This document shows positions 19,476 to 41,232 of a stretch of DNA of 64,000 nt, piece after piece (the stretch's first letter is position 1; the number at the start of each line of letters is the position of its first letter). The notes under the pieces were generated by a model. The model saw only the letters and a program-made list of their open reading frames with translations, was not told where the DNA came from and did not search any database. Made by a program: the position numbers and the translations under genes. The stretch comes from Amoebophrya sp. A120 (Eukaryota; Protista; Dinoflagellata): contig CAJINV010000008.1 of assembly GCA_905178155.1 (NCBI GenBank), positions 682,001 through 746,000 on the forward strand, in the 5' to 3' direction.

Positions 19476-19479
19476 GGTC

Positions 19480-19809
19480 GCCAATCGGAGGGAAATGTCG
19501 GAAGCTGGTGGCCAATCGCGGCAAAATATCACAAGCGGGTGGCCAATCGAGACAAAATCTTGCAAGCTGGTGGCCAATTGGGACAACATGTCACCAGTAA
19601 GTGGCCAACCGGGGCAAAATCTGGGAAGCTCATAGCCAATTGAGGCAAAATATTATAAGCTGGCGCCGATCACAGCCAAACTGCTGCAAGTGGGTGGCCA
19701 ATTCGAGCAAAATCTTGCAAGTTTGTGCCCAATGGAGGCAAAATATCATCAGTCGGCGGCCAATAAAGATGAAATCTTGCAAAATTGCGGGAAATTAGGA
19801 CAACCTGTC
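19480..19809. repeat. Degenerate 31-bp minisatellite, left part (consensus about GCAAAATCTTGCAAGTTGGTGGCCAATNNNN)
   Basis: CAAAAT-like anchor recurs about every 31 nt (19646, 19677, 19708, 19739). Confidence 0.85.
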
Positions 19810-21018
19810 CGATGAAATTCGATCATGAGTGATCATTTCTCAGCTGTCCAGGAGCATGAGCGATGAGTGACAATTGAGGACTACACGTACGGGAAGATAT
19901 TGGTGGAGTAGCAGAGTCGTTTGAGCTTATGAGGAGTACGCGTAGCTTTTGTGGTTCGTAGGTCGATATATTCTTCGGAATAAAGACGTAGATGCACGAA
20001 TCAAAGAACGACGATGATGATTTTGGACTCACTGTGATTCCGAACATATAGGCCATGTTTTTTTCGCAATTGGGGACCAAAAAAAGAGGAAGAAGCTGCT
20101 CGTCGGAGGACGACGCGAAAGAAGCACGCCTTTCAGTGCATTTTAGATGTGCCGCCGCTGTGTCCGCCTTATGTAAAGGTCAAAAGTACAAGAAATCCGT
20201 CGATTCGGTCTTCATTTTCATCGCTTTCAGTACTATACTATGTCGGTTTTGATCGTCGTAGTCGTCCGCGGCTGTATTTAGATGGTCGCGCTCGGTTTTA
20301 GATCACGTTTGACTACTTCTAGTTCATTTCCGCCCTGCATCTGTTGCTCGGTCTTCGAGGAGATACGCGTCTCCGCTGTCAGTACTGAGAATACTGCTAA
20401 GAAGCACTTGAGGAAGTACCTTTTGTCGCTCGTTTTCGGTCGCGATTAGCCCCGTTTTTAGTACTATTTTTGTCTGTATTCGCCCGCTATGAGCGCGCCA
20501 TGCAAATCATTGAAAAACCTATGGGACGACGTCTCTGACCGTGTCGAAGTACTAGAGGAACGTATTCTAAAGCTAGAGCAGGATCTACAGAACCGTGAAA
20601 AGAAGACACTACTAAGGTCGGTCGGGGCCGTTTTTAAGAACCTTTTTATGCGCATCATGCCATGCAAGTAAGGTTATTTTTTCGTTACAGTGTTGTAGGT
20701 TTAGGGTTTAGAACAGTTCCCCGTATCTTTTTGCTCGCATTTCACCCAAGGATATCAGTGAATCTGTATTCTACCATGCAAATAGTACCCAGTACGAATA
20801 GTATCAGCGGCGTATCATTATCCTAATCGCGGAGCACATCATGCTCCTTCTCGCGATGTTTTTGTCCTCTTTTTCGGCCCCACGCGGGATCCCGAAGGCG
20901 ATGCGAGACGCCATTAGAGTCATCTTTTTTACGCACAGCGTCACGACTTTGACGTCGATGTTCCGATCGCACGACGCGCTCGACAACCGAGGGGCACACA
21001 CTCTTCCATTTTGTATCG
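19810..21018 (+). repeat. 5' LTR (CGATGAAA...TTGTATCG)
   Basis: Matches 39515-40723; four substitutions seen by eye (19881, 19938, 19941, 20026). Confidence 0.97.
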
Positions 21019-21033
21019 TGGCACCCCTGACGG
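21019..21033 (+). promoter_or_regulatory. Primer-binding site TGGCACCCCTGACGG
   Basis: Directly abuts the 5' LTR and begins TGG, the complement of tRNA CCA. Implied tRNA 3' end ...CCGUCAGGGGUG-CCA resembles tRNA-Arg (inference). Confidence 0.8.
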
Positions 21034-21251
21034 TTAGACAAAGCACCCGCAAAAGATCAACCAAAACAACAAATCATACGGAATCAGACCTGTACCACTT
21101 TTACTATCGCGACCATTATTTAGAAACTGAATCGGCGGTGGCGGAGTTAATAAACAGCAACATAAATAATCGGCGGCGGCACATAGTAACAAGTGTGAGA
21201 GAGTTTTTCACCAAGAAACTAGTAGAGAAGAAGAAGAAAAAAACAAACGAG

Positions 21252-24200
21252 ATGCAGTCCTTCAACTGGCGCGAGCTCCCTACTAAGGAGCAGTTGAAGG
21301 CTGAGAAGGAGCCCCGCAAGAGGCTGGGATTCATTGAAGGGCTGAATCCCAACACGAGGAGCATGTACATCAAGCGCGAACGCTTTTTCGCAACTGTTGC
21401 GATGCATCAGAGCAGCTCCTCCACGACGTTCATGCCGACCTGCATCTCCGGCAAAACGTGGCCGCTGAAGGTGACTAACCTCGCGGGAGAAGATGCTGCG
21501 GAAGAACTCCCGACGTGGATCCAGTGCGCTGTTGTGGTCCCCGCGCTCGAGAGTTTGTCGGAAGAGGTCAAGAAGAAGAAATTACATGTGGCGACGTACT
21601 TCCTCCGCGCCAGGAGCTTCTTGACGTACTTTACGAAGAAGCACACTGCGGACGACAGAGTCCTCATCTGCAAGTGGATCGCGGTCAACGTGTTTACGAT
21701 TTCGACCGACTTTATCACGAAAAACATGCGGTTCGAGGCGGGGGCGAACGGCTTCTTTTCAACACGGATGCTCATGTCGCAGTTTGGTGTTCTGACCGAG
21801 AACGGACAGCCCGTCCCGTACTCCGATTCGATGGACTCCGTGGTCGACAAATGGGTGGAGTACTGGGGTATCGACGAAGAAGGGGTATATGTTGATGATG
21901 ATGCAGATGAAGATTTTTTAGCAAGCATCAGTGACATCGAATGTGTTGAGTTTAAGATTTACGGGGAGGACGACGACCAGTTGTCGAACCTGTTCGCGTA
22001 CGAACCGGCAGCACCAAGCCCGAACAAGGCGCTGATGGGATCCACGTTCGACCAGAAAAATAACAACCTCCTCGCAGAAGGACCAAGCGAACTTCCTACC
22101 CCGGGCCAGATGCAGACGCCAGCGGTCACAACACCGAATAGCAAGAAGCCCGCTGCTTCGATTGCACCTCCTGCTGCTACAACTACCCCCGCCGTTATCC
22201 CGGCCCTGCACGACTACCTGACTAAAATTTTACCGGCACCGGCACCGGCGCAGCAGTCGCAGAACAAACTCCCGATCGTCGACGACGGCCTGCATCAAGT
22301 CCCTTCTACCCCGATGCCGCCTGCATCGCGGAAGCCATCGAAGACAGCTGCTGACACCATGTCGACGAAGGACCAAATTGCAGCGTTGATCGAGGACGTT
22401 TTGATCGAGAAGAGCCCGTTCCCGGTCAAGCACTGCAAGTACCTTACGCCGTACCTGGGTGCAAAGAGCGACGTTTTGTGCTCGGATTATAACACGACTC
22501 TGCGGAAAATCGCCCAGTCGTACGAAGTCCCAGAACAGATGTTGACAGCGCCGAAGATGAAAGCGGGCGGGATGTTCGAAAAGGGTCTGGAGTCGCTGGA
22601 GCTCCCGAAGAGTGCGGCGGTGTTTGGTTTTGAAAAAAATGAAGCGCTGCAAGTAACGGACGCGGAATTCAAATCATTTCCAGTTTTGGAAGACACGCCG
22701 TACAACTGGATCGAGGAGCGCGACTTGATCCTCACCTGGATGTTCCAAACCGCGGACGCACGATCGTACAAGAAGCACCAGCAGCAGTCGCACCTGTACC
22801 CGCTGACGATGTCCGCATTTCGACGCATAACGAAAAAGAAGGTGTCCATGTGGGTGCAATGCATGAGAACTGCGGACCAGAGCCAGACGTTGTCGGTGGC
22901 GCAGCGGTTTTTGAATGGCTTTACCCTCGCGGAGAAGACTTTCGCGCGGGATCAGCAGAACTGGCTCGACGGATCGAAGGCAGGGGAGTACCGGGTCTTG
23001 GTGAAGACTGTGGGAAACTACGTCGACGCGATCTGGTCGGACACCGCGATGGTTTTTCTGGAACTGCAGATGGGATTGTGGACCCTCGTCATGCTCCGGT
23101 TGGCGATCGACTGCGAGCGCGCGGAGAGGTTCAGGATCAGCACGGAGGAGGCCCGGGTGTTACAAGATGTATTTGTCGGACGATGGCCCAAGCTCGAAGA
23201 AATTTTCAACAACGTCTACGACCGCTGCATCCGACCCCATGAGATGCACCAGAGGCGTGCATCCCTCGCCGTCTTTGACGTGTGCCTCGCCGCGATGGGA
23301 GTGTTACAGTCCAACCAGAAAGGAGTAGTCGCGATGGAAAAGAAAACCGATAGAACCGGTGCGATGAACACACCGCAGTACCACCTCCGCGAAAAGAAAA
23401 ACTACTACGTCCCGAAGCAGGACTACGGCACTGTGAGTGGCGTCCAGCAGGTAAAGATGAGCATGGCGTCTGCGCACGGGCTTTTGGCGCAGGGTGATGA
23501 CGACATCGAAGTTTTCGACAACGCGAACCCCCGCTCAGTCGATGCGAGATCCCGATCTGGTACCATGCAGTCCGCTGATGTCCCCATTTGGAGCTGGGAG
23601 ACAGATGAGAACGCATCCTTCGGCGCCGCTGGTAGCGACAAGCTGGCGGGAGTGCCCGACTGCCCCGTGCCGGAGAGCAAACGGTGGACCACCCGGGAGT
23701 ACCAGGCGCACACGGAGTGGTGGGCGCGATGGGAAATGCAGTTGACGGGAGCGCACTTTTTGTACATCGTGTATGACGACGGGAAGGACCTGCGCGGGAT
23801 CAAGGTGTTCGGTCCCGGCCCGAAAGGGGGATCTGAGTGCTTCCTGGCGATTTTTGACTGCTGCTATTCCGGAATGCGTTGCGGATGCGCTGATTTGCAG
23901 GTGGACTCTAAGGCGAAGGAGAGTGCCCGTGCGAAGCTGAAAGACCTCGGAGTCACGCATGCTGATGTCGAACTGGTCCAGAAAGTGCACACCGCGTTTC
24001 TCGCGAGCGGAAAACGGAAGTACTACGAGAAATTTGCCGGGAAAACAACCGCGGAGCAGAAGATTACTGGGGAAGAATATCGAATCCGGAATCCGACGAA
24101 GATTTCCTTCCCGGAATGTGAACAACTCGGTGAACAGTACAGGAACCTCCGTGTTGCGATTCCGACGCCGAGTGGATTTATTACGGAAGCAGGACCGGAA

Positions 24201-24284
24201 ATTTTAACTGCCGAAGAGAAGGCGCGGCTCCAGGAGCTGAAGACCCTCCTCGGACGAGTCCAAGTCTCGCAGCTTTTTCAGTAG
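21252..24284 (+). CDS. ORF1, Gag-position protein (about 1010 aa)
   Basis: First in-frame ATG downstream of the PBS (MQSFNW...). The ORF-track start at 20841 lies inside the LTR. Gag identity rests on position only; no CCHC knuckle recognised. Confidence 0.7.
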   Translation: MQSFNWRELPTKEQLKAEKEPRKRLGFIEGLNPNTRSMYIKRERFFATVAMHQSSSSTTFMPTCISGKTWPLKVTNLAGEDAAEELPTWIQCAVVVPALESLSEEVKKKKLHVATYFLRARSFLTYFTKKHTADDRVLICKWIAVNVFTISTDFITKNMRFEAGANGFFSTRMLMSQFGVLTENGQPVPYSDSMDSVVDKWVEYWGIDEEGVYVDDDADEDFLASISDIECVEFKIYGEDDDQLSNLFAYEPAAPSPNKALMGSTFDQKNNNLLAEGPSELPTPGQMQTPAVTTPNSKKPAASIAPPAATTTPAVIPALHDYLTKILPAPAPAQQSQNKLPIVDDGLHQVPSTPMPPASRKPSKTAADTMSTKDQIAALIEDVLIEKSPFPVKHCKYLTPYLGAKSDVLCSDYNTTLRKIAQSYEVPEQMLTAPKMKAGGMFEKGLESLELPKSAAVFGFEKNEALQVTDAEFKSFPVLEDTPYNWIEERDLILTWMFQTADARSYKKHQQQSHLYPLTMSAFRRITKKKVSMWVQCMRTADQSQTLSVAQRFLNGFTLAEKTFARDQQNWLDGSKAGEYRVLVKTVGNYVDAIWSDTAMVFLELQMGLWTLVMLRLAIDCERAERFRISTEEARVLQDVFVGRWPKLEEIFNNVYDRCIRPHEMHQRRASLAVFDVCLAAMGVLQSNQKGVVAMEKKTDRTGAMNTPQYHLREKKNYYVPKQDYGTVSGVQQVKMSMASAHGLLAQGDDDIEVFDNANPRSVDARSRSGTMQSADVPIWSWETDENASFGAAGSDKLAGVPDCPVPESKRWTTREYQAHTEWWARWEMQLTGAHFLYIVYDDGKDLRGIKVFGPGPKGGSECFLAIFDCCYSGMRCGCADLQVDSKAKESARAKLKDLGVTHADVELVQKVHTAFLASGKRKYYEKFAGKTTAEQKITGEEYRIRNPTKISFPECEQLGEQYRNLRVAIPTPSGFITEAGPEILTAEEKARLQELKTLLGRVQVSQLFQ

Positions 24285-24324
24285 ACCCCTCTATCGCACC
24301 GAAATTTTATACCGGTAGAGGGGT
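24272..24324 (+). promoter_or_regulatory. Candidate -1 ribosomal frameshift signal
   Basis: G CTT TTT, 6-nt spacer CAGTAG, then 12-bp stem ACCCCTCTATCG / CGGTAGAGGGGT (24285-24324). ORF2 is in the -1 frame, which is open across the ORF1 end. Confidence 0.6.
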
Positions 24325-27300
24325 GATCAACGAAGAAGAAGATTTTTTCAACAACTATGATTTTTTTGAGGACGGAGAACTTCTTGATGTCTTTTGCACC
24401 CCGTGCGTCGCAGAAACAAACTTCCTCATGATCGAAAACGACGCGACGCCCAGCTCTAGCGAGTGGGACGGCGGGGTCAGCGTTGATGACAGTTTTGAGG
24501 AACAGGGCGCTTCATTTTCCCTTTTCTCCGTCGGGATCACCGCACGAAATTTTGAAGAGCGTGTAGACATTGCGGCACGAGAAGCAGCAGAATTTAACTG
24601 GGACGAGTGGATTCGCAGTGATGGGTGGAAAGCGGAAACGTTTTCAGTAACAATCACGACCCACGATTCGTCGCTGCGTTCCGCCCCTACGCTCGACATC
24701 TCGACGACGAGCGAGTTCAAGATCCCGGACGATCTAGCCGAGGCGTGCGGTGGCGAAGACCACAAGAGCGCAATCGCGGGGTTCGGAAAATACCTATCTG
24801 AAAACAAAAATGTAGTACGCGAATTTTTGAAGCGGTTCATCGATCGGAACTGCGAGACACCTGCTGATAGAGCCCAACTTGTGCATGACTACCAGTCCGA
24901 GCTTTGTGCGGGGCACATTTACGCGAAGATTTTGAACTTTGCGCTTTTTGGGGCGTCGTCGACCAGCGGGTCCCGACAATTGGAGACACCACCGCTGCCG
25001 TGTACCGGCACCACAGGGCACGATGTTGAATTTTCGCAGGCCGACGTTGTTGACCCACCAGAGCGGATTAGGCGTCTGTGGGAACGTGCAGACACGCTAG
25101 TCAAACTCTTCCAGGAGGAATGTTCACGGTTCGACTGGGAAGAATGCGTGCACGTGTGGAAGCAGAGCATCGACTCGTTGGAATTTGCTGTCGTAAATAA
25201 AACGACCGGAGCACTCCTTGGAACTCCAGGCGAATCCTGCCCCCGTATTTCGATCCAACGAGGATCTTCGGAGTTGGGGAACCCGTTCGTACTCCCTGTG
25301 GATGACCAGTCGGACCGAACGCGTGCTGACGTCTGCGTGAAATTTGGTCGGTTCCTCGGCACTGCGGACGCGGAAGCGATGGCCCGCACTTTCCTGCATA
25401 AGAAAGAGGTCTACACGAAGGTGGTAGGTAGCAAAAGATGCGTTTTTGAATGTAGTTGTGCTCCGGAACTCTGTCATGGTGTTATCTGGGCAAAAGCATT
25501 CCAAGTATTCAAGGAGAAGTGGTTCTCAACGCTCGCTGCGACAAAGTCGCCGACACCAGCACGAGCTTCTGTACCCCGCGAGCAGATACGGACATTCGGA
25601 GCATTGCAGAGTGCCTCCTTCTTGACGGACGACGCAGTGGATTTTGGCGATTCGAAATCGTGCCTCATCGAGTTCGACGCGGAGGAAATACTGCCGTTCT
25701 CGCTTGTCGTCACACGCCCTGCGTTGACATCGGCGTTGCTAGCCGACAGGTCGTACGACGAAGAATTTTCACCGTCAGTCGCTATTGCTGCAGATCAACT
25801 CGAAGAAGAGAAGCAAGAATTTTTCAATGCGGCGCAGCATCCCGAGAGTGTTCTTCTTGCAGCAGAAGGAGCAGCGGACGAACTGTCACCAGAATCTGTC
25901 GAGTATGGCGCTCATTTGTACGACGCGATATCCGCAGGACCGGCGGAGGAAGAAAATTTATTACGCTCAACGCCACTTGTGGCCGGTCCTGCGGTAGAGG
26001 CGATGATACAACCGCAGGACCGGATCCGGTATTCTTCTAACGCTTTTCATTTTGAAAATAGCATGAAGAACGATCCGGTCCTTGTTGATGATGATTGTCA
26101 TGTGTCCCCTGAGCTGTCGCTCCCTTCCCCTAAACTACAACAACAGCGTGGTGACAGCGACGACAGCGACTCGTGTCCCGACCTCGCGCAGATAGCGGCA
26201 GAATTTCGTATGGCAACTGAAATTCCGTGCCAATCGATGGCGGACTACATCGAATTCCTCACGGCCGTGACCAAGTGTGAGTACTTGTTTGAGCAAGACG
26301 AGATCGCAATGGGGTACGAAGCGGGGTGGGCGACGCGTCACCATGGGAAGGTGGATGGAGTACCAGGGTCGATGGACTTTGTCGAGTTCCCGCAGGCGTC
26401 ACGATGGACGGTTTTGCGAAGACCGCATGTTGAGGATCGATCGCTGCAGAGGAAGCATACATTTTTGTACTTCAAGAACAATGGCCGCGTTTCTCGGCTA
26501 CAACGTGCAGGAAACGATCCGGAAAAATTTTATTACCACGGCGAAAAGGACGTCTTGGACTTCGTCGCGCTCCCGCGAACTGTTCGATTTGTTTCAACGG
26601 AACGGTCTGGATCTCATGAAACAATTCTTATGAGTCTCGCGGCGTTGGAATACAGCGACGTCTTGCCTGCGATCTTGAGCCCGATGCTCTGTGAGCCCCC
26701 GTGTACTTTGACAGATCTCCCACAAATCGACTCTGACCCTAGCCTGGGGCTACCGTCACGGCAATTCTACCATGTTGCGAAAACCATGAAAGAAGGTGGT
26801 GTCGCGACTGTGTGGGGTGTGTTTGGTGCTGGAAAGAGTCGGAGTATCGCAGCAGTAATCGCTGAATTGATCAAGAAGAACGTGTACAACAAAATCCATT
26901 TTGCGGCGACGCAGAATGTCGCTCTCGACTCGGTCCTGAAGCGACTTACGAATTTGAAGATCTCTGTCGTCCGATACAGCAGTAAAGCGTACATCGAGAG
27001 GGCCGGCGCGACGAGCACCTGCGATTTGGAAAACGTTGCTGCGAAAGTTGCGAAACGGCGTGCCAAATCTGCGTTCGCGGAATATGAAAAAATAAAGAAG
27101 CGGAGGTCTGTCATGCTCAAGAAGAAAGCACTTTTCCCCAAGGTGGAGAAGAAATACCTCCAGGTAAAGAAAGAATGTGTCGAGATTGTCAACAGAAACA
27201 CGAAGTGCTTTTGCTCTACTGCGTCGAGCCGTCCGGCAACGGGGACGACGAGCGAGCTGACGATTTACGACGAAGCAGGTCAAAGTACCGAGTTTGCCGC

Positions 27301-33300: not shown

Positions 33301-36300
33301 CCTCAACGTCAGCGACACCCGTGCACGCGGACAAGCAGTGCTTTCTTTGCCAAGCGTAAAAACAGACGTCCCTCTTAACCCGTTTTTTGCACCGGACCGC
33401 GCGACAGGAGTCGTCTCGGAGCAGCAATTTATGTTCAAATGTCTTTGGGGAGATTTGCATCCGATCGCACTCGAGCTGCAACTTTCGCGAGAAGAAAAAT
33501 GCAGCCTGGTCAACGCGAAAATGGGGATGATGTCGTCGGTCAACATGGAGTGGCTCTTGCCAGGGCGCGACACGCTTTTCCAAGTGCAACGGTCTCTTGT
33601 CGGTCTTGTCGATCTGCACCTCGTCCGGGTCATGATGCAACCCCGCGTACAGCGAATGCTTCGTGCTCGTACGCGCGACAGGTATGGCTTGATGATGCCT
33701 CCGACACGTGACACGAGTGTGAACAAGCAGGAACTGATCCTCTTCGAACATCCGCAGCACGGCCTTGTGGAAGGAACACTTGAAGCACAAAAGAGCAACA
33801 CGATTGCTGCTGCTGGTGGTCGGACGTACGTGGTCATCGGAGAAGCCGCTTTGCACGAGCGAGCGCGCCGTGCGAAATTTCCGTACTCGTACTTTGCGAC
33901 TTTCCCGCGGCACGTTGCTTTGAAAATCAACCTTGTGTACGGTGACTGGAGTTCCTACTTGGTCAAACCCCTGCAGAGCGACCCGATTGAAGGCCCTGTG
34001 AGTGGTGCTGTGATTGAAGAAGCATGGCGGCAAGCGTCTCTACAACCAGCTGGGTTTTTTCGTGTCCGCGCAGGAGGACAGCACGCCCTCGCTTTTGAGG
34101 CGAAGCAGGGCGAGCCAGTGATTCACACAATTGGATTGCACAAGATCGAGACGGGTATTTTGTGCTTTACGCGGTCTTCTCCTGTTCTTGGGGCACCCCG
34201 GCACATATACGGGTACCGTATCCCCAACGGGATCGCCGTAAACGGCGTCCGGAGAGATGCGATGTACTGGCAGTGGCATACACACGTCCCCGGAAGTTAC
34301 GATGCGGAAACAGCAGAGGACGCTTTCTCAGTAACAGCGCGTCTATGGCTGAAGCGAATTGATCTTGAACAATGGGCTGGATCCGGCCGGTTCAACGCGC
34401 TCGGCGGCGTTGATGAATTTGAAGACACACGGCCCGCTCCTTCTGTCGCCCCTGTCGTTGTGGCGCCCACTGTACGACAACGAGATGAGCCGTTCTTCGC
34501 GTCTATTTTCCACGAAGCTGCTTCTTTAGCTGCGCTGTCCGCTCGCGTGCGCAGGATCCCGGAACAGATTGCGAAGTCTGTCGTCCAAACGCCATCTGGA
34601 TTCGAAGTAGTCTTGGGTGACAATAGGCTCCTCCTCGTCGAAAACACACAACTAAACGAATGGCGGTTCGAGACGAAGAACCGCGAAACAACATGCCTTC
34701 AGTTGTTTGCAGAAAATTCAGAGGACAGCACATCCGCATTTTCTGCTTGCGGTCTTGCGGTCGAAGCTGCTTCCGTCGCAAATTCCCCGGGAACCTCGTT
34801 GTACAAGCTGACGGAAGCGTGCTACCAGTACACTGCTGGTGGATCGTGGGACGAGGAAGATGCGGTTTGCTATTTCAATGCAGCTCGTGTGGCACCGGGA
34901 GATTCCGTTCCAGAACAGTACGTCACGTGCAAAGTTTTTTTCGATGCTGCAGACGCCCTGGAACAACATTTCCTGCCATCGGATTTTGAACTAGAAGAAC
35001 CGCACGATCCCGGAATTCCTTCCTTCTGTCGCGTGCGTGAATCGACGACAGCAGAGAGCATAGTCGCAGCACAAGAAAAGCAACTAGAAGATGCTGTGAA
35101 GCCGCCCGTGGAAGTCGCGGGGACAGTTGCGAAGGGTCAGTTTTCGGACCGCGTCGTGGACTCTGTCGACATTGTGATCGACGCAGTCCGGAAGGGAGAA
35201 ATTGTTGCAGGGCACGACTTAGATGCGTTCGAGAAGAACGCGTTCTACATCGGAAAACACCTCCCCGGGCTCGCGTACTACTTGCGGGACCGCGTCGCAC
35301 TGCTAATTGCGCGATTAGACGCACCGGAAACTCCACCAGAGGGCTCTACGTGGGAAGAGATTCGACAGTATGTTGTCGACTTCATCGTCTCTGCCATCAC
35401 TGATACCGGGTGTGTCGCAGGACCCCAGTTTGATGTCGAAGGCGCGAAGACGCGGCTCCGCGGGTGGGTTGAAGGATGCAAATTGCGGAAAGAAAAAGAG
35501 GCAGAGGAGATTTTCCAGTCGTTGCTGGCCATCCTCGAGTCACCTTCTGGCGTGCATGACCGCGCGCGACTCGACTTGTGCAATGGGACTATCACTCTGT
35601 CGACTGCTGAGGCCACAGGACCACATGCAATCGAAGTTCTCCTCCGCCACTTTCAAGGACAGGCGCACCTCGTGTCGGGGTTTACCGGAGGGAGCCGTGA
35701 TACGAACCCGGCTGTTCTAAGGATGCGGGTGTACCTCCAGGACAGTCGGACCGGACGACTCCACCTCACACCATGGCTAAATCAATATGTCATGAGGTGT
35801 TGGGGTCGATCTGCCCCGAAATGCGAAACGCTTGGGTTTGCATTTGGTGTTTGTGACCTCGTCAAACTCGGTTACCGTCCTTGCGGGCTCGAGAGCGCGT
35901 TCAACTTCCCAAACGGCGCGGCACTACATGTTGCGAACCTCATCAAGCTGCGAGGTGCTTCTCCTGGAACAGAGACGGCAACAGTAAAAGCAGTGCAGTC
36001 CCGCTTCCTGACAGCGCCAGGCGAACAAGACGGTGACTTGACGCTCGTTGCCGGGCAGACTGCAACTGCGGTGATCCGTGTTGATAACTTTCTCGCAGGG
36101 CAGCGGATTTGCATCTTCTTTTCGAACCCCGGAGACAACGAGCGACTGATTTTGACGCACAATGGGACCGTCGTTCCTCTCGTGATGCCAGTGCCTTCGT
36201 CACGGGAGATTCGCCTATCGGTGGAAACGACGAAGCAGCGAGTGAAGATTAAGAACGCAAATATCGGGCTGACGATGAAACCGCTGGACGGGGAGGACCC

Positions 36301-37435
36301 GGTCCATTTTCGACAGCAACTGGAGGTCGTCGGAAGCGAAATTGGCCTCGATGCTGCAATGCGTGTCCTCGACCCCGATGTAGACGACGACATCGCCGAA
36401 GAAGAGACGACGGATGCGACTTTTGGAGCCGCCGGAGCAGTGAGTACGAATCCAGACTTGACCCCAGAGTACCTCGAGAACTGCAAACGCGAACACGAAG
36501 ACTTTATGAAGACTCTGAACTCTTCGAACGAAGGATCGTCGCAGTTCCAAGCAGAGCTCTACCTCCAGCTGTTGCGGACGATGAACTACGGCTCACTTCG
36601 TCGCGCATGTGAAAAAGACGGGTACGACATCGAGGAGACGATTTCTTTGTGGGAGGCGTTTTGTTTTGCGATCGCGGCGTGGGCAGGGCATTCCGGGTTC
36701 ATGACAGATGGTCATCAAATACCAAAATTCGATTTCCCGGGGTGTGGCGTGGAACTACTGAACCCCCACGCTTCGGTGGACCCACAGCCCCGTCGTGTGC
36801 GGAACCCTCCGGAGTTGGATTGGATTCTCGGGCAGCTGGCTACTCAGGACGTATCAGTCGGGATAATCGAACTTTTCGATTCTTTGAAGCACGGATTTGT
36901 GCGGTTCTGTTCGAACACGATGTGGGCGAAGAGGTCGAAACTCTACCAGGGGCGCATCGTGAACATCTACAAAACACCGAACAAAATCGCGAACCCGTGT
37001 TTTTGTTACAGCATAATACCGTCACAGATCCTCGAGACGCTCCGCCATTCGAGCTGCGTCGGCTACTTGGAATTGGACATAAAACGCGCGTTCCAGGGGA
37101 TTCAAGTCCACTTGGAATTATCCTTGTGGCTCAGTCTTGTCATCGGAACTGAAATCTACCTGCCGAACCGCGCCAGCCTGGGATTTGCCCCATGGCCTGG
37201 CATTTTTGGGCAACTGACGACCCCGCTGTTCGCGTCGCTGAAGTGCGGACCAGCAGCTGCGATGCAGTTTTTTTCCGAGATGCGAGGCCCACTTGCAGAG
37301 CTACATGAAGCACTAAAAGTTGCAGGGCTTGCTGGTCGATACAAGTCGATTGCAGAAGGATATCGAGCACACGTGACGCACCAAAAGCAGCAGCTGAACG
37401 CCTCCCAGAGGAGTGGGGGAGGACAGTTAGCATAG
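24323..37435 (+). CDS. ORF2, 4370-aa polyprotein: DUF4326 - SF1 helicase - DSP phosphatase - ExoIII/APE - RT C-half/RNase H - CYTH-like - integrase - JAB-like - protease-like - RT N-half
   Basis: Uninterrupted 13.1-kb ORF; individual motifs are listed in the domain features. Confidence 0.9.
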   Translation: MINEEEDFFNNYDFFEDGELLDVFCTPCVAETNFLMIENDATPSSSEWDGGVSVDDSFEEQGASFSLFSVGITARNFEERVDIAAREAAEFNWDEWIRSDGWKAETFSVTITTHDSSLRSAPTLDISTTSEFKIPDDLAEACGGEDHKSAIAGFGKYLSENKNVVREFLKRFIDRNCETPADRAQLVHDYQSELCAGHIYAKILNFALFGASSTSGSRQLETPPLPCTGTTGHDVEFSQADVVDPPERIRRLWERADTLVKLFQEECSRFDWEECVHVWKQSIDSLEFAVVNKTTGALLGTPGESCPRISIQRGSSELGNPFVLPVDDQSDRTRADVCVKFGRFLGTADAEAMARTFLHKKEVYTKVVGSKRCVFECSCAPELCHGVIWAKAFQVFKEKWFSTLAATKSPTPARASVPREQIRTFGALQSASFLTDDAVDFGDSKSCLIEFDAEEILPFSLVVTRPALTSALLADRSYDEEFSPSVAIAADQLEEEKQEFFNAAQHPESVLLAAEGAADELSPESVEYGAHLYDAISAGPAEEENLLRSTPLVAGPAVEAMIQPQDRIRYSSNAFHFENSMKNDPVLVDDDCHVSPELSLPSPKLQQQRGDSDDSDSCPDLAQIAAEFRMATEIPCQSMADYIEFLTAVTKCEYLFEQDEIAMGYEAGWATRHHGKVDGVPGSMDFVEFPQASRWTVLRRPHVEDRSLQRKHTFLYFKNNGRVSRLQRAGNDPEKFYYHGEKDVLDFVALPRTVRFVSTERSGSHETILMSLAALEYSDVLPAILSPMLCEPPCTLTDLPQIDSDPSLGLPSRQFYHVAKTMKEGGVATVWGVFGAGKSRSIAAVIAELIKKNVYNKIHFAATQNVALDSVLKRLTNLKISVVRYSSKAYIERAGATSTCDLENVAAKVAKRRAKSAFAEYEKIKKRRSVMLKKKALFPKVEKKYLQVKKECVEIVNRNTKCFCSTASSRPATGTTSELTIYDEAGQSTEFAAATILVGTKRVIMVGDQNQLGPVLKSTRKNKRHKAVDGLVDTIFEESIDVEVCGESIFARLVEKGRGATVFIDTQYRCPPVLADFLSEEFYGGKLKSAPSAPAEAKYSFETPVVSVRTSADILLAGQQSPDGKLPPYISPSTIAAASRIRQILLDKGVTAADIKAVSVYRAGNEIKSRVAPMTIAGVDSYQGGEVQILFAFIMCPKSGPTIWVANRKRILVLLSRAVSCLFAFMPDEVEREEGCLERFSKYTKTTEKCLHIQNPEDAVKMAVKKAPEVIITTAESTCEPAVVEHIVTDLDGGESHAPESPWCSSNMMSACLGAPADGGMHKITEAVDTEDLMYFDFESQADLVSDDSVIAALRGDSDAAVSAIRDAEAACTGLWLDPHAFGEITAGTLRVVAPLAPEDTLKSGKNRYGNKEISAHEVFRTKNGCSVWIGNYAAAVAEKKNFDTHINMTANVEEIDGCNYHYRVPLVFGALRRNIRSVRMKFKTVLRRVHAGKKVLFFCVAGKDRSSQGARMLAYFLDAERPALEIQQIISTARPEIRYSFPRLDNFFTQIIAADTSTRIRLLDPDNTRIELLVEDAKANMASSFFSLDPDVVAEDRSEVPPVIQTTAPAVAEIPQSNFVYRRTAIASHTYSRNWRLMNYNPDSLNSFFENRPEHVDALFEYRSATTIFPETKLTEDTATIATKNLEKKGHDVVHFLNEDKKGEHGLSVATPKGELAEGQLLPHSITRGPSREGRLALLEYENFFVVAEYAPNRRPGQYEQYDTDIRGYLRELVKNLRKPFILCGDRNVTPEARDVSAHPRYSDNIPSTREVEDRVPYRALIEEFDLVDAWRALNPDAEGHYTSFYQQGNLLRQNAGVRIDLFLVQKPLMKFVKHCGIVTTIHKAKGDHHPIYLDMLLDFGTETLRQKAREGLDFVRSLPVGDDPAVATARARNATPFVGYREFFSTFNTLDLEGDEEQASKDDEEDEDEEPDAPGGESEKDAFKALDMLMEGFQDACAEAFAKFDTKKEYLKVVSVLQEWVDGKKAAGFSCSTIFQMLMMDDATAAIFGVGDAMLKLLLNIGAAKKLNCKFGSKKTQTLSGFAKSCGYIVQGGWISVPAALVNDLRAMARIPPTPRLCRRLLGKLAFAPTALAMEYSRILPTLTALSRKTMQQYLKDALTEESIAAFEIIINSAAINPLCPIDWEKVDSGLWIPLGQPDGHAVGWGAVLITIDRECFFSDAVDNVRDFIRIHGIKSAPFPERLRYRCPAESETYASLGYHQYLDYLMQNRTRYWTNDNSNVGQIETEMHRCSVKSWNTAIGYLARFFQSPGLERLVLPESLLVWADCAGRMHKNCVVAQTLVQQLVASPKKLLAVLFPHVDFDKRDKISEKEKEEFKKAAAAAMTTSSFRVAISPEGEDVVDPSRGGESAFLLVQGQEFPTPETLPGFEYPEGPIFSEENFDDATFLHGSFFPSQVRDVIEDEEEEKPLYQYKITSVERSAAILSTIKSRADRIRVFEFDQVFFDDDDYTLARKGLLLLKTRTKTSSEFWLVMAHDVLRGTAAVEAALAEIVGIKITQEQFLDRYCGEFSHKVTSDKYPLRVVAHTSVREVYCNYGAQQFVDFSHSVSMVYYTPRSGYEEFRYPMTTGINVLRIRQKSVGSSQIEDLELLFRIREFRVDDSVAVRACEHLPILDLINPRLASCFHDSTTNFGFAKRTAEEDDFLAEKRKRGSMDENSLEAEEGDFFCPQSDAEILPEGGTASAKDGEDTASAKEGGAGVSPEQKKPLYFRMDSDDEEINDDGETTELINLIKKRKKPITIHDVHDIYRSLIKNSDFVGMPNLLRQLPGAKKSEDRGPIKLTDDELLALHQRDFHRPAKELAWALSCAGYEVTEERCKKIITFKCYCRGVKFNRHYPKKRASLNPPSVHDWHADLLYCKWSDGVLHLRDRIPEYDEKPLTKEEWSKVDRADIYSMIGTGMWDSDTVPVERESMTKQFIRCESSKGFNVKCFFLNVSDTRARGQAVLSLPSVKTDVPLNPFFAPDRATGVVSEQQFMFKCLWGDLHPIALELQLSREEKCSLVNAKMGMMSSVNMEWLLPGRDTLFQVQRSLVGLVDLHLVRVMMQPRVQRMLRARTRDRYGLMMPPTRDTSVNKQELILFEHPQHGLVEGTLEAQKSNTIAAAGGRTYVVIGEAALHERARRAKFPYSYFATFPRHVALKINLVYGDWSSYLVKPLQSDPIEGPVSGAVIEEAWRQASLQPAGFFRVRAGGQHALAFEAKQGEPVIHTIGLHKIETGILCFTRSSPVLGAPRHIYGYRIPNGIAVNGVRRDAMYWQWHTHVPGSYDAETAEDAFSVTARLWLKRIDLEQWAGSGRFNALGGVDEFEDTRPAPSVAPVVVAPTVRQRDEPFFASIFHEAASLAALSARVRRIPEQIAKSVVQTPSGFEVVLGDNRLLLVENTQLNEWRFETKNRETTCLQLFAENSEDSTSAFSACGLAVEAASVANSPGTSLYKLTEACYQYTAGGSWDEEDAVCYFNAARVAPGDSVPEQYVTCKVFFDAADALEQHFLPSDFELEEPHDPGIPSFCRVRESTTAESIVAAQEKQLEDAVKPPVEVAGTVAKGQFSDRVVDSVDIVIDAVRKGEIVAGHDLDAFEKNAFYIGKHLPGLAYYLRDRVALLIARLDAPETPPEGSTWEEIRQYVVDFIVSAITDTGCVAGPQFDVEGAKTRLRGWVEGCKLRKEKEAEEIFQSLLAILESPSGVHDRARLDLCNGTITLSTAEATGPHAIEVLLRHFQGQAHLVSGFTGGSRDTNPAVLRMRVYLQDSRTGRLHLTPWLNQYVMRCWGRSAPKCETLGFAFGVCDLVKLGYRPCGLESAFNFPNGAALHVANLIKLRGASPGTETATVKAVQSRFLTAPGEQDGDLTLVAGQTATAVIRVDNFLAGQRICIFFSNPGDNERLILTHNGTVVPLVMPVPSSREIRLSVETTKQRVKIKNANIGLTMKPLDGEDPVHFRQQLEVVGSEIGLDAAMRVLDPDVDDDIAEEETTDATFGAAGAVSTNPDLTPEYLENCKREHEDFMKTLNSSNEGSSQFQAELYLQLLRTMNYGSLRRACEKDGYDIEETISLWEAFCFAIAAWAGHSGFMTDGHQIPKFDFPGCGVELLNPHASVDPQPRRVRNPPELDWILGQLATQDVSVGIIELFDSLKHGFVRFCSNTMWAKRSKLYQGRIVNIYKTPNKIANPCFCYSIIPSQILETLRHSSCVGYLELDIKRAFQGIQVHLELSLWLSLVIGTEIYLPNRASLGFAPWPGIFGQLTTPLFASLKCGPAAAMQFFSEMRGPLAELHEALKVAGLAGRYKSIAEGYRAHVTHQKQQLNASQRSGGGQLA
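25187..25503 (+). other. DUF4326-like domain in ORF2
   Basis: ISIQRGSSELGNPF ... RADVCVKF ... FECSCAPELCHGVIW fits the IGR.S.WGNPF / C.C.P..CHG pattern. Confidence 0.7.
26750..28060 (+). other. Upf1/DNA2-like superfamily 1 helicase domain in ORF2
   Basis: Walker A GVFGAGKS (26816-26839), ATQNVALD, IYDEAGQ, VGDQNQLGP, QYRCPP, VDSYQGGE, VLLSRA. Confidence 0.92.
28560..28980 (+). other. Dual-specificity phosphatase domain in ORF2
   Basis: VWIGNYAAA, HINMT, KVLFFCVAGKDRS (CX5R at 28820-28840), ARPEI. Confidence 0.88.
29225..30010 (+). other. Exonuclease III / AP endonuclease (EEP) domain in ORF2
   Basis: LMNYNP, PETK, EGR, YAPN, ILCGDRNV, LVDAWR, YTSFY, GVRIDLFLV, GDHHPI. Confidence 0.92.
30420..31320 (+). 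other. RT C-terminal half (motif C, thumb, connection) plus Ty3-type RNase H
   Basis: QMLMMDD (MMDD 30443-30454), KTQ...SCGYIV, PPTPRLCRRLLGKLAF, PDGHAVGWGAVL, CPAESETYA, TNDNSNV, VWADCAGR. Confidence 0.82.
31730..32300 (+). other. Degenerate CYTH-like domain in ORF2
   Basis: FDQVFFDDDDYTLARKGLLLLKTR resembles CYTH D.YFD..d..L....LR.R; the ExExK motif is not preserved (QYK). Confidence 0.4.
32850..33800 (+). other. Integrase-like domain (HHCC zinc site plus divergent core)
   Basis: LHQRDFH...KCYC, WHADLLY (first D), FAPDRATG...QF (second D); third acidic residue not evident. Confidence 0.68.
34130..34335 (+). other. JAB/MPN+-like motif in ORF2
   Basis: IETGILC ... WHTHVPGSYDAETAED approximates E...HxH-x7-S-x2-D, with an 8-residue spacer and T for S. 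Confidence 0.45.
35555..35880 (+). other. Retropepsin-like protease domain, divergent
   Basis: RARLDLCNGTITLS (for ALLDTGA...IS), VSGFTGG flap, FAFGVCDLVKLG (for ILG.DFL..g); lies upstream of the RT N-half as in gypsy pol. Confidence 0.5.
36740..37240 (+). other. RT N-terminal half (fingers, motifs A and B); no motif C before the stop
   Basis: DPQPRR, VGIIE, FCSNTMWAKR, GRIVNIYKTPNK, LELDIKRAFQGIQV (motif A, D at 37076), YLPNRASLGFAPWPGIF (motif B). Confidence 0.88.
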
Positions 37436-38215
37436 ATCAGAAAATTTTTTTTCACAGCGGAATAATATCAGACGCCTCACCATTTTGATACAATTTTGTT
37501 CCACAAAACCACCCTTTTTCTTGTGCCGAGCTCGAAGATCCGGACGACAATTTTGTTTTTGATCAATGCAATTCTGTTTTATTTTTGTATGCTCGTGTGT
37601 TATAATCCCGACGTAATCGTAGGCTTTTCTGGAGTAGGTAGTAGCAACCACGACTACTCAAGGAAGAGAAAAAAAAGAATGTCGTACGTCGCCTTCGCGG
37701 GAACGATTATTTTATCAGACCGAGACGGAAGTCCTCGCGCGTTACAAACGGCACCGGTTAGTCTTTCAGAAACGATCTACTGGCGAGGGAGCGGATCATT
37801 TACTTCATCGAGATTACGAGAAAACGATCTTCAATACGCACCTCCTAGTAGCGAAAGCAGTTCTAGTTCTAGTAGCGAAAACAGTTCTAGCACTAGCAGT
37901 AAAAGCAGTAGTAACGAAAGTAGTTCAAGCAGCACAAGTTCACACCGCGCTCCAACCGCTAATCAAAGAAGGAGGAAATCACCAATGAGCGGACAGTTGC
38001 CGTGTAGTTCTATGCACCCAGGAGGGTTTGGCCCTATTTGAGTTCCTTTTCCGTTTTTACGAAAAAAAAAAGAAAGACTAAGTAAGAAAAGAACAAACTA
38101 CGAAAAAAAGAACGACGCTTTTCTCTGACTTTACAATAAATAAACTTCATCCGTTTATTTTGTCTTTTCTCATTTTACTACTGTTCCTCCCCTCGCTCCG
38201 GTCGCCACCTTCACG

Positions 38216-38974
38216 ATGCCCGAGAACACCAAGATCGACACGGCCACTGCCGGATCTTCTTCTGGTGTCGACAAGAAGCCCGAAGACAAGGTCGGTAAAA
38301 CCGCGCGCAAGCGCAACAGCCGTGGACAGTTTTGTGCGGGTGGTGCGCCCAAGGAAGCCTCGAAAGAGACTTCGATGAAGTCGAAGAAACAGCGACGTGA
38401 TTCTGCTGATCGCCAGCTCGAGGAGGACATCAAGAACTGTGACCGCATCCGGGAGCTGGACGACAACCCGTTTTTCAAGGAGAAACCCGATGACAATCCT
38501 GACTCTGCTCTGCAAATCGCGTACAGCACGTGCTCCCGCGAAAATCGAGAATTGAAAGAGGAAATGGCTTCTATGCATTCCGAAGTGCAGCGATTGCGCA
38601 ATGAAAACAATGACTTCAAGCGGGTGGAAGAAGTAGGTCGGTTGCGGGAACAGTTGTACAACACCCAGCGCGAGAATGCGGAATTGCGGGACGAAATTGG
38701 ATGGATCAAGGGCTACGGGAAAAAGGGAGGAAAAGGTGGCGAAAAGAAAGGGAAGTTCCGTGGGTTCCTCGACGAGGAGTTCTCCGATTCGGATGATTAC
38801 TTTGGAAAGAAAGGGAAAAAGGATGGTGAAAAGAAAGGGAAGAAAGGGGCCGGTAAAACGGGAATCAAGAAGGACGGTCCGGCGGTTTTCGACAAGGATG
38901 GAAAAAAAGGAGCGCTGCCCTTGTTGCACGGCAAAATCGATGCGCCTGCTACCCAGGATTCAACGTCTTCGTAA
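38216..38974 (+). CDS. ORF3, accessory 252-aa protein: coiled coil plus Gly/Lys-rich basic tail
   Basis: ATG-started ORF between pol and the 3' LTR; heptad-like ENRELKEEM...ENAELRDEI; KGYGKKGGKGGEKKGK. Confidence 0.7.
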   Translation: MPENTKIDTATAGSSSGVDKKPEDKVGKTARKRNSRGQFCAGGAPKEASKETSMKSKKQRRDSADRQLEEDIKNCDRIRELDDNPFFKEKPDDNPDSALQIAYSTCSRENRELKEEMASMHSEVQRLRNENNDFKRVEEVGRLREQLYNTQRENAELRDEIGWIKGYGKKGGKGGEKKGKFRGFLDEEFSDSDDYFGKKGKKDGEKKGKKGAGKTGIKKDGPAVFDKDGKKGALPLLHGKIDAPATQDSTSS

Positions 38975-39514
38975 GCAACACGCAGTGACACCATCCGATG
39001 CGATTTTAGATCTTTTGAACTCTCCATCATAGATTCCCGCATTACAAATTTGATCTTATCGTCGCGATAAAATTTTATAGTTGAAAGATCGCCACTTCAA
39101 AATACTACTCGCCAACAATCACGTCTTTTTATGTGGACTTCAGATTCTTATCCGGTACTAAGAAAAAAACCCTCGTAACCACAGCGAACATCAAATACAA
39201 AAAAAATTTCATAGGGTTAGCAAAAAGACATGAAAAATATATCCCCGTAAAAAGAACGCACAGCAGCCCGCGTTCATTCAAATACAAAAAAATAAGAAAA
39301 TCCTCAAATACAAAAACAAAAGAAAATATGAAAAAACCAAAAAATTTCCTTATCCTGAAAGACATGAAAAAAAAATAAAACAGCTTAGGGAGGATAAAGC
39401 GGACTTCTGTCGAAAACCCCTTGTAGAAATCACATGAGCCTCTTTTACTATTATTTTTTACTACCAACGTTTTTGGCATCAGTGCCATCACTCATGCTCC
39501 TGGAGCAGACGGCA

Positions 39515-40723
39515 CGATGAAATTCGATCATGAGTGATCATTTCTCAGCTGTCCAGGAGCATGAGCGATGAGTGACAATTGAGGATTACACGTACGGGAA
39601 GATATTGGTGGAGTAGCAGAGTCGTTTGAGCTTATGAGGAGTGCGTGTAGCTTTTGTGGTTCGTAGGTCGATATATTCTTCGGAATAAAGACGTAGATGC
39701 ACGAATCAAAGAACGACGATGATGATTTTGAACTCACTGTGATTCCGAACATATAGGCCATGTTTTTTTCGCAATTGGGGACCAAAAAAAGAGGAAGAAG
39801 CTGCTCGTCGGAGGACGACGCGAAAGAAGCACGCCTTTCAGTGCATTTTAGATGTGCCGCCGCTGTGTCCGCCTTATGTAAAGGTCAAAAGTACAAGAAA
39901 TCCGTCGATTCGGTCTTCATTTTCATCGCTTTCAGTACTATACTATGTCGGTTTTGATCGTCGTAGTCGTCCGCGGCTGTATTTAGATGGTCGCGCTCGG
40001 TTTTAGATCACGTTTGACTACTTCTAGTTCATTTCCGCCCTGCATCTGTTGCTCGGTCTTCGAGGAGATACGCGTCTCCGCTGTCAGTACTGAGAATACT
40101 GCTAAGAAGCACTTGAGGAAGTACCTTTTGTCGCTCGTTTTCGGTCGCGATTAGCCCCGTTTTTAGTACTATTTTTGTCTGTATTCGCCCGCTATGAGCG
40201 CGCCATGCAAATCATTGAAAAACCTATGGGACGACGTCTCTGACCGTGTCGAAGTACTAGAGGAACGTATTCTAAAGCTAGAGCAGGATCTACAGAACCG
40301 TGAAAAGAAGACACTACTAAGGTCGGTCGGGGCCGTTTTTAAGAACCTTTTTATGCGCATCATGCCATGCAAGTAAGGTTATTTTTTCGTTACAGTGTTG
40401 TAGGTTTAGGGTTTAGAACAGTTCCCCGTATCTTTTTGCTCGCATTTCACCCAAGGATATCAGTGAATCTGTATTCTACCATGCAAATAGTACCCAGTAC
40501 GAATAGTATCAGCGGCGTATCATTATCCTAATCGCGGAGCACATCATGCTCCTTCTCGCGATGTTTTTGTCCTCTTTTTCGGCCCCACGCGGGATCCCGA
40601 AGGCGATGCGAGACGCCATTAGAGTCATCTTTTTTACGCACAGCGTCACGACTTTGACGTCGATGTTCCGATCGCACGACGCGCTCGACAACCGAGGGGC
40701 ACACACTCTTCCATTTTGTATCG
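39515..40723 (+). repeat. 3' LTR
   Basis: Direct repeat of 19810-21018, followed by TSD CTGTC. Confidence 0.97.
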
Positions 40724-40728
40724 CTGTC

Positions 40729-41232
40729 GCGAAATGGCGGCGAAGTGGACCAAAATATCGCAAATTGACGGCCAATCTGGGCAAAATATTGCGAGTTCGT
40801 AGCCAGTCAGGGCAAAATCTTGCAAGCAGGCGGCGAATTAAGGGAAAATTTTGCGAGGTGGCGGGTAATTTGGGCAAAATCTTGCAAGTTGGTCACCACG
40901 CAGGGCAAAATCTTGTGTCAGCTTGGCAAAATCTTGCAAGTTGGTCGCCAACGAAGGCAAAATCTTGCAAGCTGGCGGCCAATCAAAGCAAAACCTTGCA
41001 AACTGGTAGCAACTCGCGGCAAAACCTGGCGAGTTGACAGCCAATCACTGCAAAATCTCGCAAGTTGGCGGCCAATGAGGGCACAATTATGCAAGTTGAC
41101 GGGAAATCGTGGCAACTTCTTGCAATTTTGCAATCAAGTAAAGCACAATCTTGTAAACTGGCGGCCATTCAAGACACAATCAGGCACAACAGCAGACAAT
41201 TAACGCAAAATATGGGGCAAAATCATACAAAA
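40729..41232. repeat. Degenerate 31-bp minisatellite, right part
   Basis: Same GCAAAATCTTGCAAG unit as 19480-19809; phase continues across the empty site. Confidence 0.85.

Follow-up and report, generated by a model that had tools for sequence, protein, structure and literature searches.

A giant LTR retroelement and its reading frames

The window (the whole stretch of Amoebophrya sp. A120 DNA analyzed, 64,000 nucleotides) contains, at positions 19810..40723, a giant LTR retroelement of approximately 21 kb with intact LTRs, target-site duplication (TSD) and ORFs. Its ends, reading frames and associated signals are the following (coordinates, strand, feature):

19805..19809, no strand, left TSD, CTGTC
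19810..21018, +, 5' LTR, 1,209 nt, termini CGAT...ATCG
21019..21033, +, PBS-like motif beginning with TGG and abutting the 5' LTR
21252..24284, +, ORF1, likely Gag, 1,010 aa from the ATG at 21252 (open frame 20802-24284)
24134..37435, +, ORF2, Pol polyprotein, in the -1 frame relative to ORF1, with a 151-nt overlap
24272..24324, +, candidate -1 frameshift site: imperfect slippery heptamer (24272-24278) and hairpin (24285-24324, z -2.56)
38216..38974, +, ORF3, 252 aa, coiled-coil-like, Lys/Gly-rich
39479..39582, +, long hairpin (z -3.96) spanning the start of the 3' LTR, the usual site of the polypurine tract
39515..40723, +, 3' LTR, 1,209 nt
40724..40728, no strand, right TSD, CTGTC

As the earlier note had counted, the 2 LTRs of 1,209 nt have exactly 4 differences (0.33%); they align without gaps, and all 4 differences are transitions located within the first 217 nt. 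The TSD that it had named is present at both ends of the element, and the insertion splits a 31-bp tandem array that is found on either side. The low LTR divergence, the perfect TSD and the 13.3-kb open frame show that the insertion is recent. The PBS is a candidate one, a TGG-initial motif directly after the 5' LTR, at 21019, recognized by its sequence pattern only, and no tRNA gene was found within the 64-kb window. Purine runs of at least 11 nt are absent from the 600 nt preceding the 3' LTR; the nearest one begins at 38900.

The contiguity of the locus was borne out in run X1, where a single unbranched contig of 16,900 nt corresponds to positions 20989-37888 with 0 differences and covers the coding region of both ORF1 and ORF2. 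The junctions between the internal region and the 3' LTR and between the 3' LTR and the flank were likewise recovered. Because X1 is possibly the source sample of the window, these data back the assembly and do not represent an independent organism. The LTR read depth (88.3) corresponds to 2 copies of the LTR, and read-depth and contig evidence indicate a single copy of the element, so there is no copy burst pointing to ongoing activity. A second, diverged, collinear copy also appears in run X1. RNA runs X4 and X5 produced one read each on the element; X4 and X6 also lacked coverage of the neighbouring host genes, and all three runs are thus uninformative. In the contigs of RNA run X7 the host genes were covered at low depth and the element was not, which is no evidence of silence.

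The 3 ORFs described as intact in the earlier note are indeed so (1,010, 4,433 and 252 aa). ORF2 measures 4,433 aa from stop to stop, 4,335 aa from the first Met and approximately 4,385 aa from the likely frameshift, close to the 4,370 aa first proposed for the polyprotein. ORF1 is likely Gag, judging from its position and from its homologue at the equivalent position in L001 (27% over 275 aa, E 3e-23), a locus retrieved in one metagenome scan. It has a Cys-rich zinc-finger-like motif near its C-terminus and no Pfam match, and an atlas search with its C-terminal 301 aa gave only matches under 0.9. A caspase-like protease, considered in ORF1 on the basis of 2 motifs, was rejected: the L001 homologue does not keep these motifs, and the Cys cluster aligns with a CCCH-like zinc finger. 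The -1 overlap of L001 contains a perfect in-frame heptamer and a hairpin, whereas the heptamer of the window copy is imperfect, which counts against the proposed frameshifting. No family and no homologue were found for ORF3, and a search for an Env or fusion glycoprotein in ORF3 and the unassigned stretches of ORF2 did not yield any Pfam family.

A reverse transcriptase in two pieces

The domains located in ORF2 are listed below (coordinates, strand, feature):

25244..25486, +, DUF4326 domain, aa 371-451 (E 7.5e-5; 2.9e-6 on fragment)
26741..28033, +, Upf1/SMUBP2-like SF1 helicase (E 3e-15), Walker A/B and motifs III-VI present
28541..28993, +, dual-specificity-phosphatase-like domain, intact Cx5R, weak match (E 0.06)
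29231..30013, +, ExoIII/APE1-like endonuclease (PDB match, E 1.6e-15), catalytic motifs present
30416..30883, +, RT C-half: motif C MMDD (Asp 2106-2107), motifs D/E, thumb
30896..31348, +, RNase H-like domain immediately following the thumb, with four acidic motif positions conserved
32846..33733, +, integrase-like domain, identified by motifs: HHCC-like zinc motif, two invariant Asp (2978, 3061)
35270..35902, +, retropepsin-like aspartic protease, DTG at 3757
36029..36295, +, all-beta domain that may be dUTPase-like (several dUTPases at Z 4.7-5.2, with Ig-like folds scoring equally)
36461..37288, +, RT N-half: helical extension, fingers, motif A (Asp 4315), motif B', short tail, stop

The RT of ORF2 is in 2 pieces, with the break between motifs B' and C, and these pieces lie approximately 2,200 aa apart in swapped order. 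The C-half (xxDD, thumb, RNase H) occupies aa ~2095-2405 and the N-half (fingers, motifs A and B') aa ~4110-4385, at the end of the protein, which gives the module order RT-C/RH, IN, PR, RT-N and a distance from motif A to motif C of -2,209 aa. Together the halves tile known RTs: CaMV RT (N-half on 139-293, E 3.4e-4; C-half on 298-407), MMLV RT (N-half on 29-208; C-half on 222-312, starting at YVDD) and Ty3 RT (N-half on 36-203; C-half on 205-302). By fold, the N-half matched the RT N-halves of HIV-1, Ty3, foamy virus, MMLV and CaMV (Z 8.9-11.9). The 2 ORF2 pieces are thus the halves of one RT cut between B' and C. This split, order-swapped RT, which the earlier note had missed, is the defining feature of the family to which the element belongs.

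Assignment of the other Pol domains is of uneven strength. The RNase H-like domain has no Pfam or PDB sequence match; its four acidic positions and a structure model with the RNase H order of strands and helices (pLDDT mostly 70-95) suggest that it is an RNase H. The integrase-like domain also lacks Pfam and PDB matches. Across the family its HHCC-like motif is present in 14/14 covering rows and both Asp in 15/15, and a Glu at D+35 is found in 1/15 (the window copy only); given this and the missing database match, the element is only putatively autonomous. The protease Asp is kept in 12/12, and the fold matches the FIV, EIAV and RSV proteases moderately (Z 4.8-5.8); both these scores and those of the dUTPase-like domain are within the range that the fold-search tool labels common. 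From the C-terminal structure model only the part from aa ~3730 onward was used, the underlying alignment being wrong over the first ~480 residues. A CYTH-like domain, seen by eye at aa ~2540-2780, was discarded (no Pfam match, model pLDDT mostly under 50), and this stretch carries no assignment. Concerning the accessory cargo, 4 domains have database support, one of them only at E 0.06 (the phosphatase-like domain, which has a homologue in the relative P0014, E 2e-5), and a fifth is the weak dUTPase-like fold, so the earlier count of about six was somewhat generous. The likeness to an RNA virus replicase proved to be loose, the helicase being closest to cellular Upf1/SMUBP2-type proteins and the nuclease to ExoIII/APE1.

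The Pfam cut-offs are passed by neither RT half and by none of RNase H, integrase and protease (RVT_1 was weakly matched by 4/14 N-halves, best E 0.033). Such elements would therefore escape notice or be labelled as helicase or repair genes of the host.

The family and its closest known systems

We found 29 relatives, 13 of which are long polyproteins (1,387-5,098 aa), and none is named a retroelement. In all 14 long family proteins (the window ORF2 and the 13 relatives), the RT is split and retains the three catalytic aspartates (motif A Asp and motif C DD), at 20-38% identity. The halves occur in three different orders, found in 10, 1 and 3 proteins: the motif A-to-C distance is -1,951 to -2,442 aa in 10 of them, +1,859 in 1 and +263 to +304 in 3; it is never under 263 aa, and the textbook PR-RT-RH-IN order occurs in 0/14. 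The order of the window element (order 1) is shared by 9 other proteins and by the L001 DNA, and in order-1 proteins the stop of the N-half comes 48-84 aa beyond motif B'. In 3 relatives the RT halves are joined by a linker of 184-227 aa. Each half carries family-wide extra helices beside the break (~25-35 aa per side) that are absent from known RTs. When 4 proteins were left out of the module profiles, both of their halves were still matched (E 1e-30 to 1e-63). P0017 is truncated, and in P0022 no protease was detected.

Trees of the N-half, the C-half/RNase H and the integrase contain largely identical groups, which indicates that the halves are inherited together while their order changes. 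Accordingly, the window element is sister to P0001, which has order 2, with support of 98/96 in the C-half tree and 82/85 and 89/90 in the other trees. Because the trees are unrooted, contain family members only and have several weak deep forks, no sequence of rearrangement events can be derived from them. Among the 13 long relatives, P0002 alone is also represented by DNA, namely L001. The metagenome scan that recovered it gave 9 loci, with L001 as the sole family member and the other 8 matching the AP endonuclease stretch alone. Scans of viral contigs revealed no relative, nor did anything point to an extracellular virus stage. The 29 relatives support the distinct lineage of giant retroelements proposed earlier.

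In Ty3/gypsy elements (Metaviridae), pol has the order PR-RT-RH-IN, the RT is contiguous with motif A ~70 aa before motif C, the integrase has HHCC plus D,D(35)E, the termini are TG...CA and a polypurine tract precedes the 3' LTR. With these elements and other Ortervirales our element shares LTRs, a 5-bp TSD, a PBS-like site, the -1 overlap of ORF1 and ORF2, a retropepsin-like protease, an RT fold followed by thumb and RNase H, and an HHCC-type integrase motif; the Ortervirales RT structures matched were those of Ty3 (4OL8/7Q5B), CaMV (8R0S), MMLV (8WUS) and foamy virus (7O0G/H). The paired LTRs with TSD, the RT with its thumb and the retropepsin protease place it among the LTR retroelements, with the RNase H assigned by motifs and model. 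In contrast to Ty3/gypsy, its RT is in 2 pieces in the order RT-C/RH, IN, PR, RT-N, its ends are CG...CG, there is no polypurine tract at the 3' LTR, the third integrase carboxylate is not conserved and the divergence goes beyond the Pfam cut-offs. Opening the Ty3/gypsy order PR-(dUT)-RT-RH-IN within the RT yields the order seen in our element. Ty1/copia elements (Pseudoviridae) have an RVT_2-type RT and the order PR-IN-RT-RH, and differ from the family both in module order and in that 4/14 N-halves weakly match RVT_1. In the RdRps of birna- and permutotetraviruses the palm is permuted, with motif C upstream of A and B, but locally, within one folded domain; in our element the parts are approximately 2,200 aa away from each other, with other enzymes in between, and motif C is accompanied by thumb and RNase H.

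The large size and the polyprotein with several enzymes, both stressed in the earlier note, are already known from the planarian gypsy-like Burro/GYPSM1 elements, which in the excerpted description exceed 30 kb and code for a polyprotein of 4,873 aa that includes numerous additional domains (PMC6431247). Common to both are a length above 20 kb, the giant polyprotein, many accessory domains and, tentatively, a dUTPase-like domain lying between protease and RT (PMC6431247). In that account Burro carries the usual PR-RT-RH-IN set, its Gag is typical and has CCHC knuckles, Env is encoded in frame, the cargo is of the apoptosis/ubiquitin type and copies run into the thousands; a split RT is not mentioned in the excerpt (PMC6431247). 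SF1 helicases fused to LTR-element proteins are described from insects, again in an excerpt (PMC6338049). The novelty is therefore the split, order-swapped RT. A parallel is offered by splipalmiviruses, fungal narna-like viruses whose RdRp is, in the excerpted accounts, divided into pieces with motifs F/A/B and C/D that are proposed to re-associate (PMC7816673, PMC11405419). In both cases a right-hand palm is cut between motifs B and C (PMC7816673), although the splipalmivirus pieces are described as lying on separate RNA segments, with no protease and no DNA stage (PMC7816673, PMC11405419), and in our case a single ORF of an integrated retroelement encodes both RT pieces. By analogy, assembly of the RT from 2 subunits likely parallels that proposed for the divided RdRp.

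Proposed assembly of the two halves and its meaning

An artefact of assembly or gene calling has next to no probability as the origin of the permuted order and is largely refuted: run X1 may be the window's own source, but its contig crosses ORF1 and ORF2 unbranched, it holds the diverged collinear copy, and 9 other proteins as well as the L001 DNA have the same order. We also regard it as highly improbable that the RT is rejoined in RNA, by back-splicing or a circular RNA in order 1 or by removal of the intervening part in orders 2 and 3. Circularizing 30.4-37.3 kb would restore the textbook gene order, and non-canonical introns are abundant in the likely, Amoebophrya-type host group, according to an excerpt (PMC7789003). 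However, the break is flanked by the family-specific helices, the linkers are open, variable, protein-like sequence, the order-1 N-half runs into a stop shortly after motif B', and three orders would demand three splicing routes. The possibility that the RT, and perhaps the integrase, no longer copies, the halves being kept for another job while a helper moves the element, draws on the very long branches, the MMDD instead of YxDD in motif C and the absence of a conserved third acidic residue in the integrase. It is nevertheless very unlikely, since the RT aspartates, the RNase H acidic positions and the protease Asp are kept in every long relative at 20-38% identity, and the odd ends and absent polypurine tract fit a foreign helper poorly.

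It is also unlikely, though less so, that the halves are never cut and the RT forms by folding back of the polyprotein, either in cis or from a pair of unprocessed Pol chains, integrase and protease being pushed out as loops. We did not identify a cleavage site in the polyprotein, and a loop could span the 184-227 aa between the halves of 3 relatives, but in 11/14 proteins ~1,900-2,400 aa including integrase and protease intervene, in either direction, and the protease Asp is invariant. Moreover, Pol proteins of LTR elements are normally processed.

We consider it probable that the halves of the two-piece, swapped RT of this intact, single-copy LTR retroelement, once freed by the protease, pair into a two-subunit enzyme, likely in a Gag particle. 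Building on the LTRs and TSD, the ORFs, the identity of the halves, the break, the aspartates in 14/14 proteins and the three orders, we infer a cycle in which a ~20-kb genomic RNA would be translated into Gag-Pol via -1 frameshifting and the element's own protease would free the RT halves by a candidate cleavage. These would pair, probably aided by the helices beside the break. Minus-strand synthesis would be primed by a tRNA at the PBS and plus-strand synthesis, in place of a polypurine tract, perhaps from the hairpin at the 3' LTR start; the deviant integrase would then insert the CG ends with a 5-bp stagger. Optional cargo, namely the helicase, the phosphatase, the AP endonuclease and the possible dUTPase, may assist in copying a very long RNA or in countering host defence. 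Historically, an insertion in the B'-C loop, of which the linker in the 3 relatives may be a remnant, is likely to have led to independent half modules that were shuffled more than once. Somewhat better than even, in our estimate, is the chance of the broader reading: the element would be the type member of a so far undescribed superfamily of active, giant retroelements from marine alveolates, with an obligate two-subunit RT freed by proteolysis, modules in any order, non-DDE-type integration at CG ends and hairpin plus-strand priming, some members of which may be free viruses.

To our knowledge, the three catalytic aspartates are on one chain in all RTs known, and we found no published description of such split-RT retroelements in the open PMC and bioRxiv literature. 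The window copy, complete and young, is a good experimental starting point. A natural active site distributed over 2 pieces and kept through deep divergence and three orders shows that separable modules suffice to build the palm, and that they part where divided viral RdRps do. With this family, the assembly of a polymerase from two subunits can be tested directly, and RT engineering gains a natural place to split the enzyme.

The reverse transcriptase of ORF2

The element has the following features:
19810-40723, forward strand, LTR retroelement with its LTRs, flanked by CTGTC
from an ATG at 21252, forward strand, ORF1 (likely Gag), 1,010 aa
24134-37435, forward strand, ORF2 (Pol polyprotein), 4,433 aa stop to stop
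ORF3, small 3' ORF, 252 aa

Pfam searches of ORF2 did not detect a whole reverse transcriptase (RT), only a match to positions 57-139 of RVT_1 (E 0.25) at its extreme end. A block with motif C, thumb and RNase H (C-half, RT-C/RNase H) was found by eye 2,200 aa upstream of this match. Searching 1.84 billion representatives with aa 2080-3220 returned 29 matches, 13 of them long, which together with ORF2 form the 14 long proteins considered here. A profile of 8 collinear proteins matched the CaMV RT (E 1e-6) and those of MLV/XMRV over a stretch that begins at YVDD and takes in the thumb, and a profile made from the 14 N-halves (RT-N; fingers, motifs A and B') matched CaMV RT 139-293 (E 3.4e-4). 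The predicted N-half structure aligned to the fingers and first part of the palm of the HIV-1, Ty3, foamy, HERV-K, MMLV and CaMV RTs (Z 8.9-11.9, rmsd 3.4-5.3 Å, 140-204 residues); among the 48,161 chains searched, RT chains occupied the top 12 rows, the next row having Z 6.1. On known chains the 2 halves abut (CaMV 293/298, Ty3 203/205, MMLV 208/222). The break point falls behind the helix that follows motif B' and ahead of the motif C strand, and most members carry extra helices beside it in each half.

The protease Asp is invariant and the match to the retropepsin fold is moderate. Between protease and RT-N lies a beta domain that may be dUTPase-like, but its fold match is tied with Ig-like folds; Burro has a dUTPase-like domain between protease and RT (PMC6431247, available part). 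In the integrase-like domain, for which the database search gave no match, two Asp residues are conserved together with an HHCC-like motif, and Glu at D+35 is present in 1 of 15 such sequences, the element's own copy.

Module orders and accessory domains of the relatives

Module profiles made from 10 collinear proteins were applied to all 14 long proteins. In order 1, shared by the element and 9 others, RT-C/RNase H is followed by integrase, protease and, last, RT-N. Order 2 (RT-N, integrase, protease, RT-C/RNase H) was found in the relative P0001, in whose cluster 8 of the 11 members are identical in length (4,020 aa). Order 3 (integrase, protease, RT-N, a linker of 184-227 aa, RT-C/RNase H), in which the RT is split but not permuted, is complete in P0019; P0022 shows it with no protease detected by the module profiles, and P0017 in a truncated form. 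Trees built without an outgroup, and containing some long branches, from 14 N-halves, 14 C-half/RNase H sequences and 13 integrases (P0017 has none) had their main groups in common. Order 1 requires 3-4 changes on these trees; counting well-supported branches alone, 2-3 are forced for the RT halves and 1 for the integrase.

Among the relatives, species names are given only for those of Amoebophrya sp. AT5.2 and A25. The copia-like first ~1,300 aa of P0003 are probably a gene-model fusion. L001, the DNA encoding P0002, carries an ORF1 homologue and, in a -1 overlap, a perfect slippery heptamer together with a hairpin; an LTR pair was not found within its contig. Its region 3' of Pol (L001:17831-23167) has ORFs of 198 aa (short HHCC-like motif), 1,028 aa (Cys/His knuckle-like motifs) and 472+ aa, unrelated to the element's ORF3. 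For ten of the 11 P0001-cluster members the contig is roughly as long as the element (15.1-17.4 kb). Such contigs represent either multi-copy repeats that have been collapsed or free elements present in metagenomes.

Pfam and PDB support DUF4326, an Upf1/SMUBP2-like SF1 helicase and an ExoIII/APE1-like nuclease in ORF2, and a weak dual-specificity phosphatase match; catalytic motifs are kept in these enzymes. The cargo set varies between relatives: helicase was detected in 7, phosphatase in 6, AP endonuclease in 5 and DUF4326, at differing positions, in 3 of the 14 long proteins (the Pfam scan covered all but P0012 and P0019, because of their length), and PP2C was found in P0020 and NADAR in P0025. 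The giant multi-enzyme polyprotein described by the earlier note is real, but its size and cargo are not new, both being known from Burro (PMC6431247, available part).

Integrity, copy number and surroundings of the element

Sequence comparison bore out the intact ORFs and the young LTR pair proposed from the sequence: each LTR is 1,209 nt, the 4 differences are all transitions, and CTGTC is present on both flanks. The element interrupts a 31-bp tandem array that continues on either side; tandem repeats with units of 22 bp and 31 bp make up the insertion site (18540-19747, 40746-41181). ORF2 is in the -1 frame relative to ORF1, with an overlap of 151 nt. In the matching sequencing run X1, which may be the window's own source, a single unbranched contig of 16,900 nt covers 20989-37888 with 0 differences. 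Depth is 44.5 on this contig, 88.3 on the LTR contig and 43-44 on nearby single-copy host DNA. Therefore, the element is correctly assembled and single-copy, without near-identical solo LTRs. A second X1 contig (depth 43.6) matches six short element stretches in the same order, showing that the run contains a diverged relative. Its DNA-level matches at 37666-37746 and from 37814 onward suggest a conserved RNA signal; a Ser-rich open frame of 191 codons (37466-38041) lies between ORF2 and ORF3. The expected polypurine-tract site is occupied by a hairpin (z -3.96), whose stability was equalled in 1 of 200 shuffles. Each LTR holds a 60-codon ATG-started ORF (20489-20671; 40194-40376) whose translation resembles a coiled coil with an amphipathic helix.

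The flanking genes are eukaryotic (EMP70, DNAAF5-like), and the flanks are rich in very deeply covered repeats of ~250 bp that carry terminal inverted repeats and resemble the introner elements known from Amoebophrya (PMC7789003, available part). The host is likely a member of the Syndiniales. Such repeats lie inside host genes (3014-3265, 45793-46044, 46397-46658, 54054-54304 and others), with a summed X1 depth of 1e4-3e5. A flank ORF (60535-61560) matches DegT/DnrJ/EryC1/StrS aminotransferases (E 1.6e-77), a mostly bacterial family, and was possibly acquired by horizontal transfer.

Explanations of the split

From its sequence, the element is predicted to work like Ty3/gypsy, from which it differs in module order, in the absence of a contiguous RT and in its CG ends instead of TG/CA termini. 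In the accessible open literature we found no description of a split or permuted RT.

The split and permuted order being an artefact has a practically negligible chance. All 14 long proteins keep the Asp of motif A and the DD of motif C, and a dead RT in an element moved by a helper is quite improbable; re-joining of the RT at the RNA level is highly improbable. That the uncut polyprotein folds back to bring the halves together is unlikely. The most likely explanation is proteolytic release followed by pairing: the element's own protease would cut the polyprotein, and the freed halves would pair, rebuilding the active site. By analogy, RdRps of fungal narna-like viruses are divided at this same point, with F/A/B on one piece and C/D on the other, and their re-association has been proposed (PMC7816673, PMC11405419, available parts). 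With release and pairing the modules would be independent, so that module order could change while the halves stay co-inherited.
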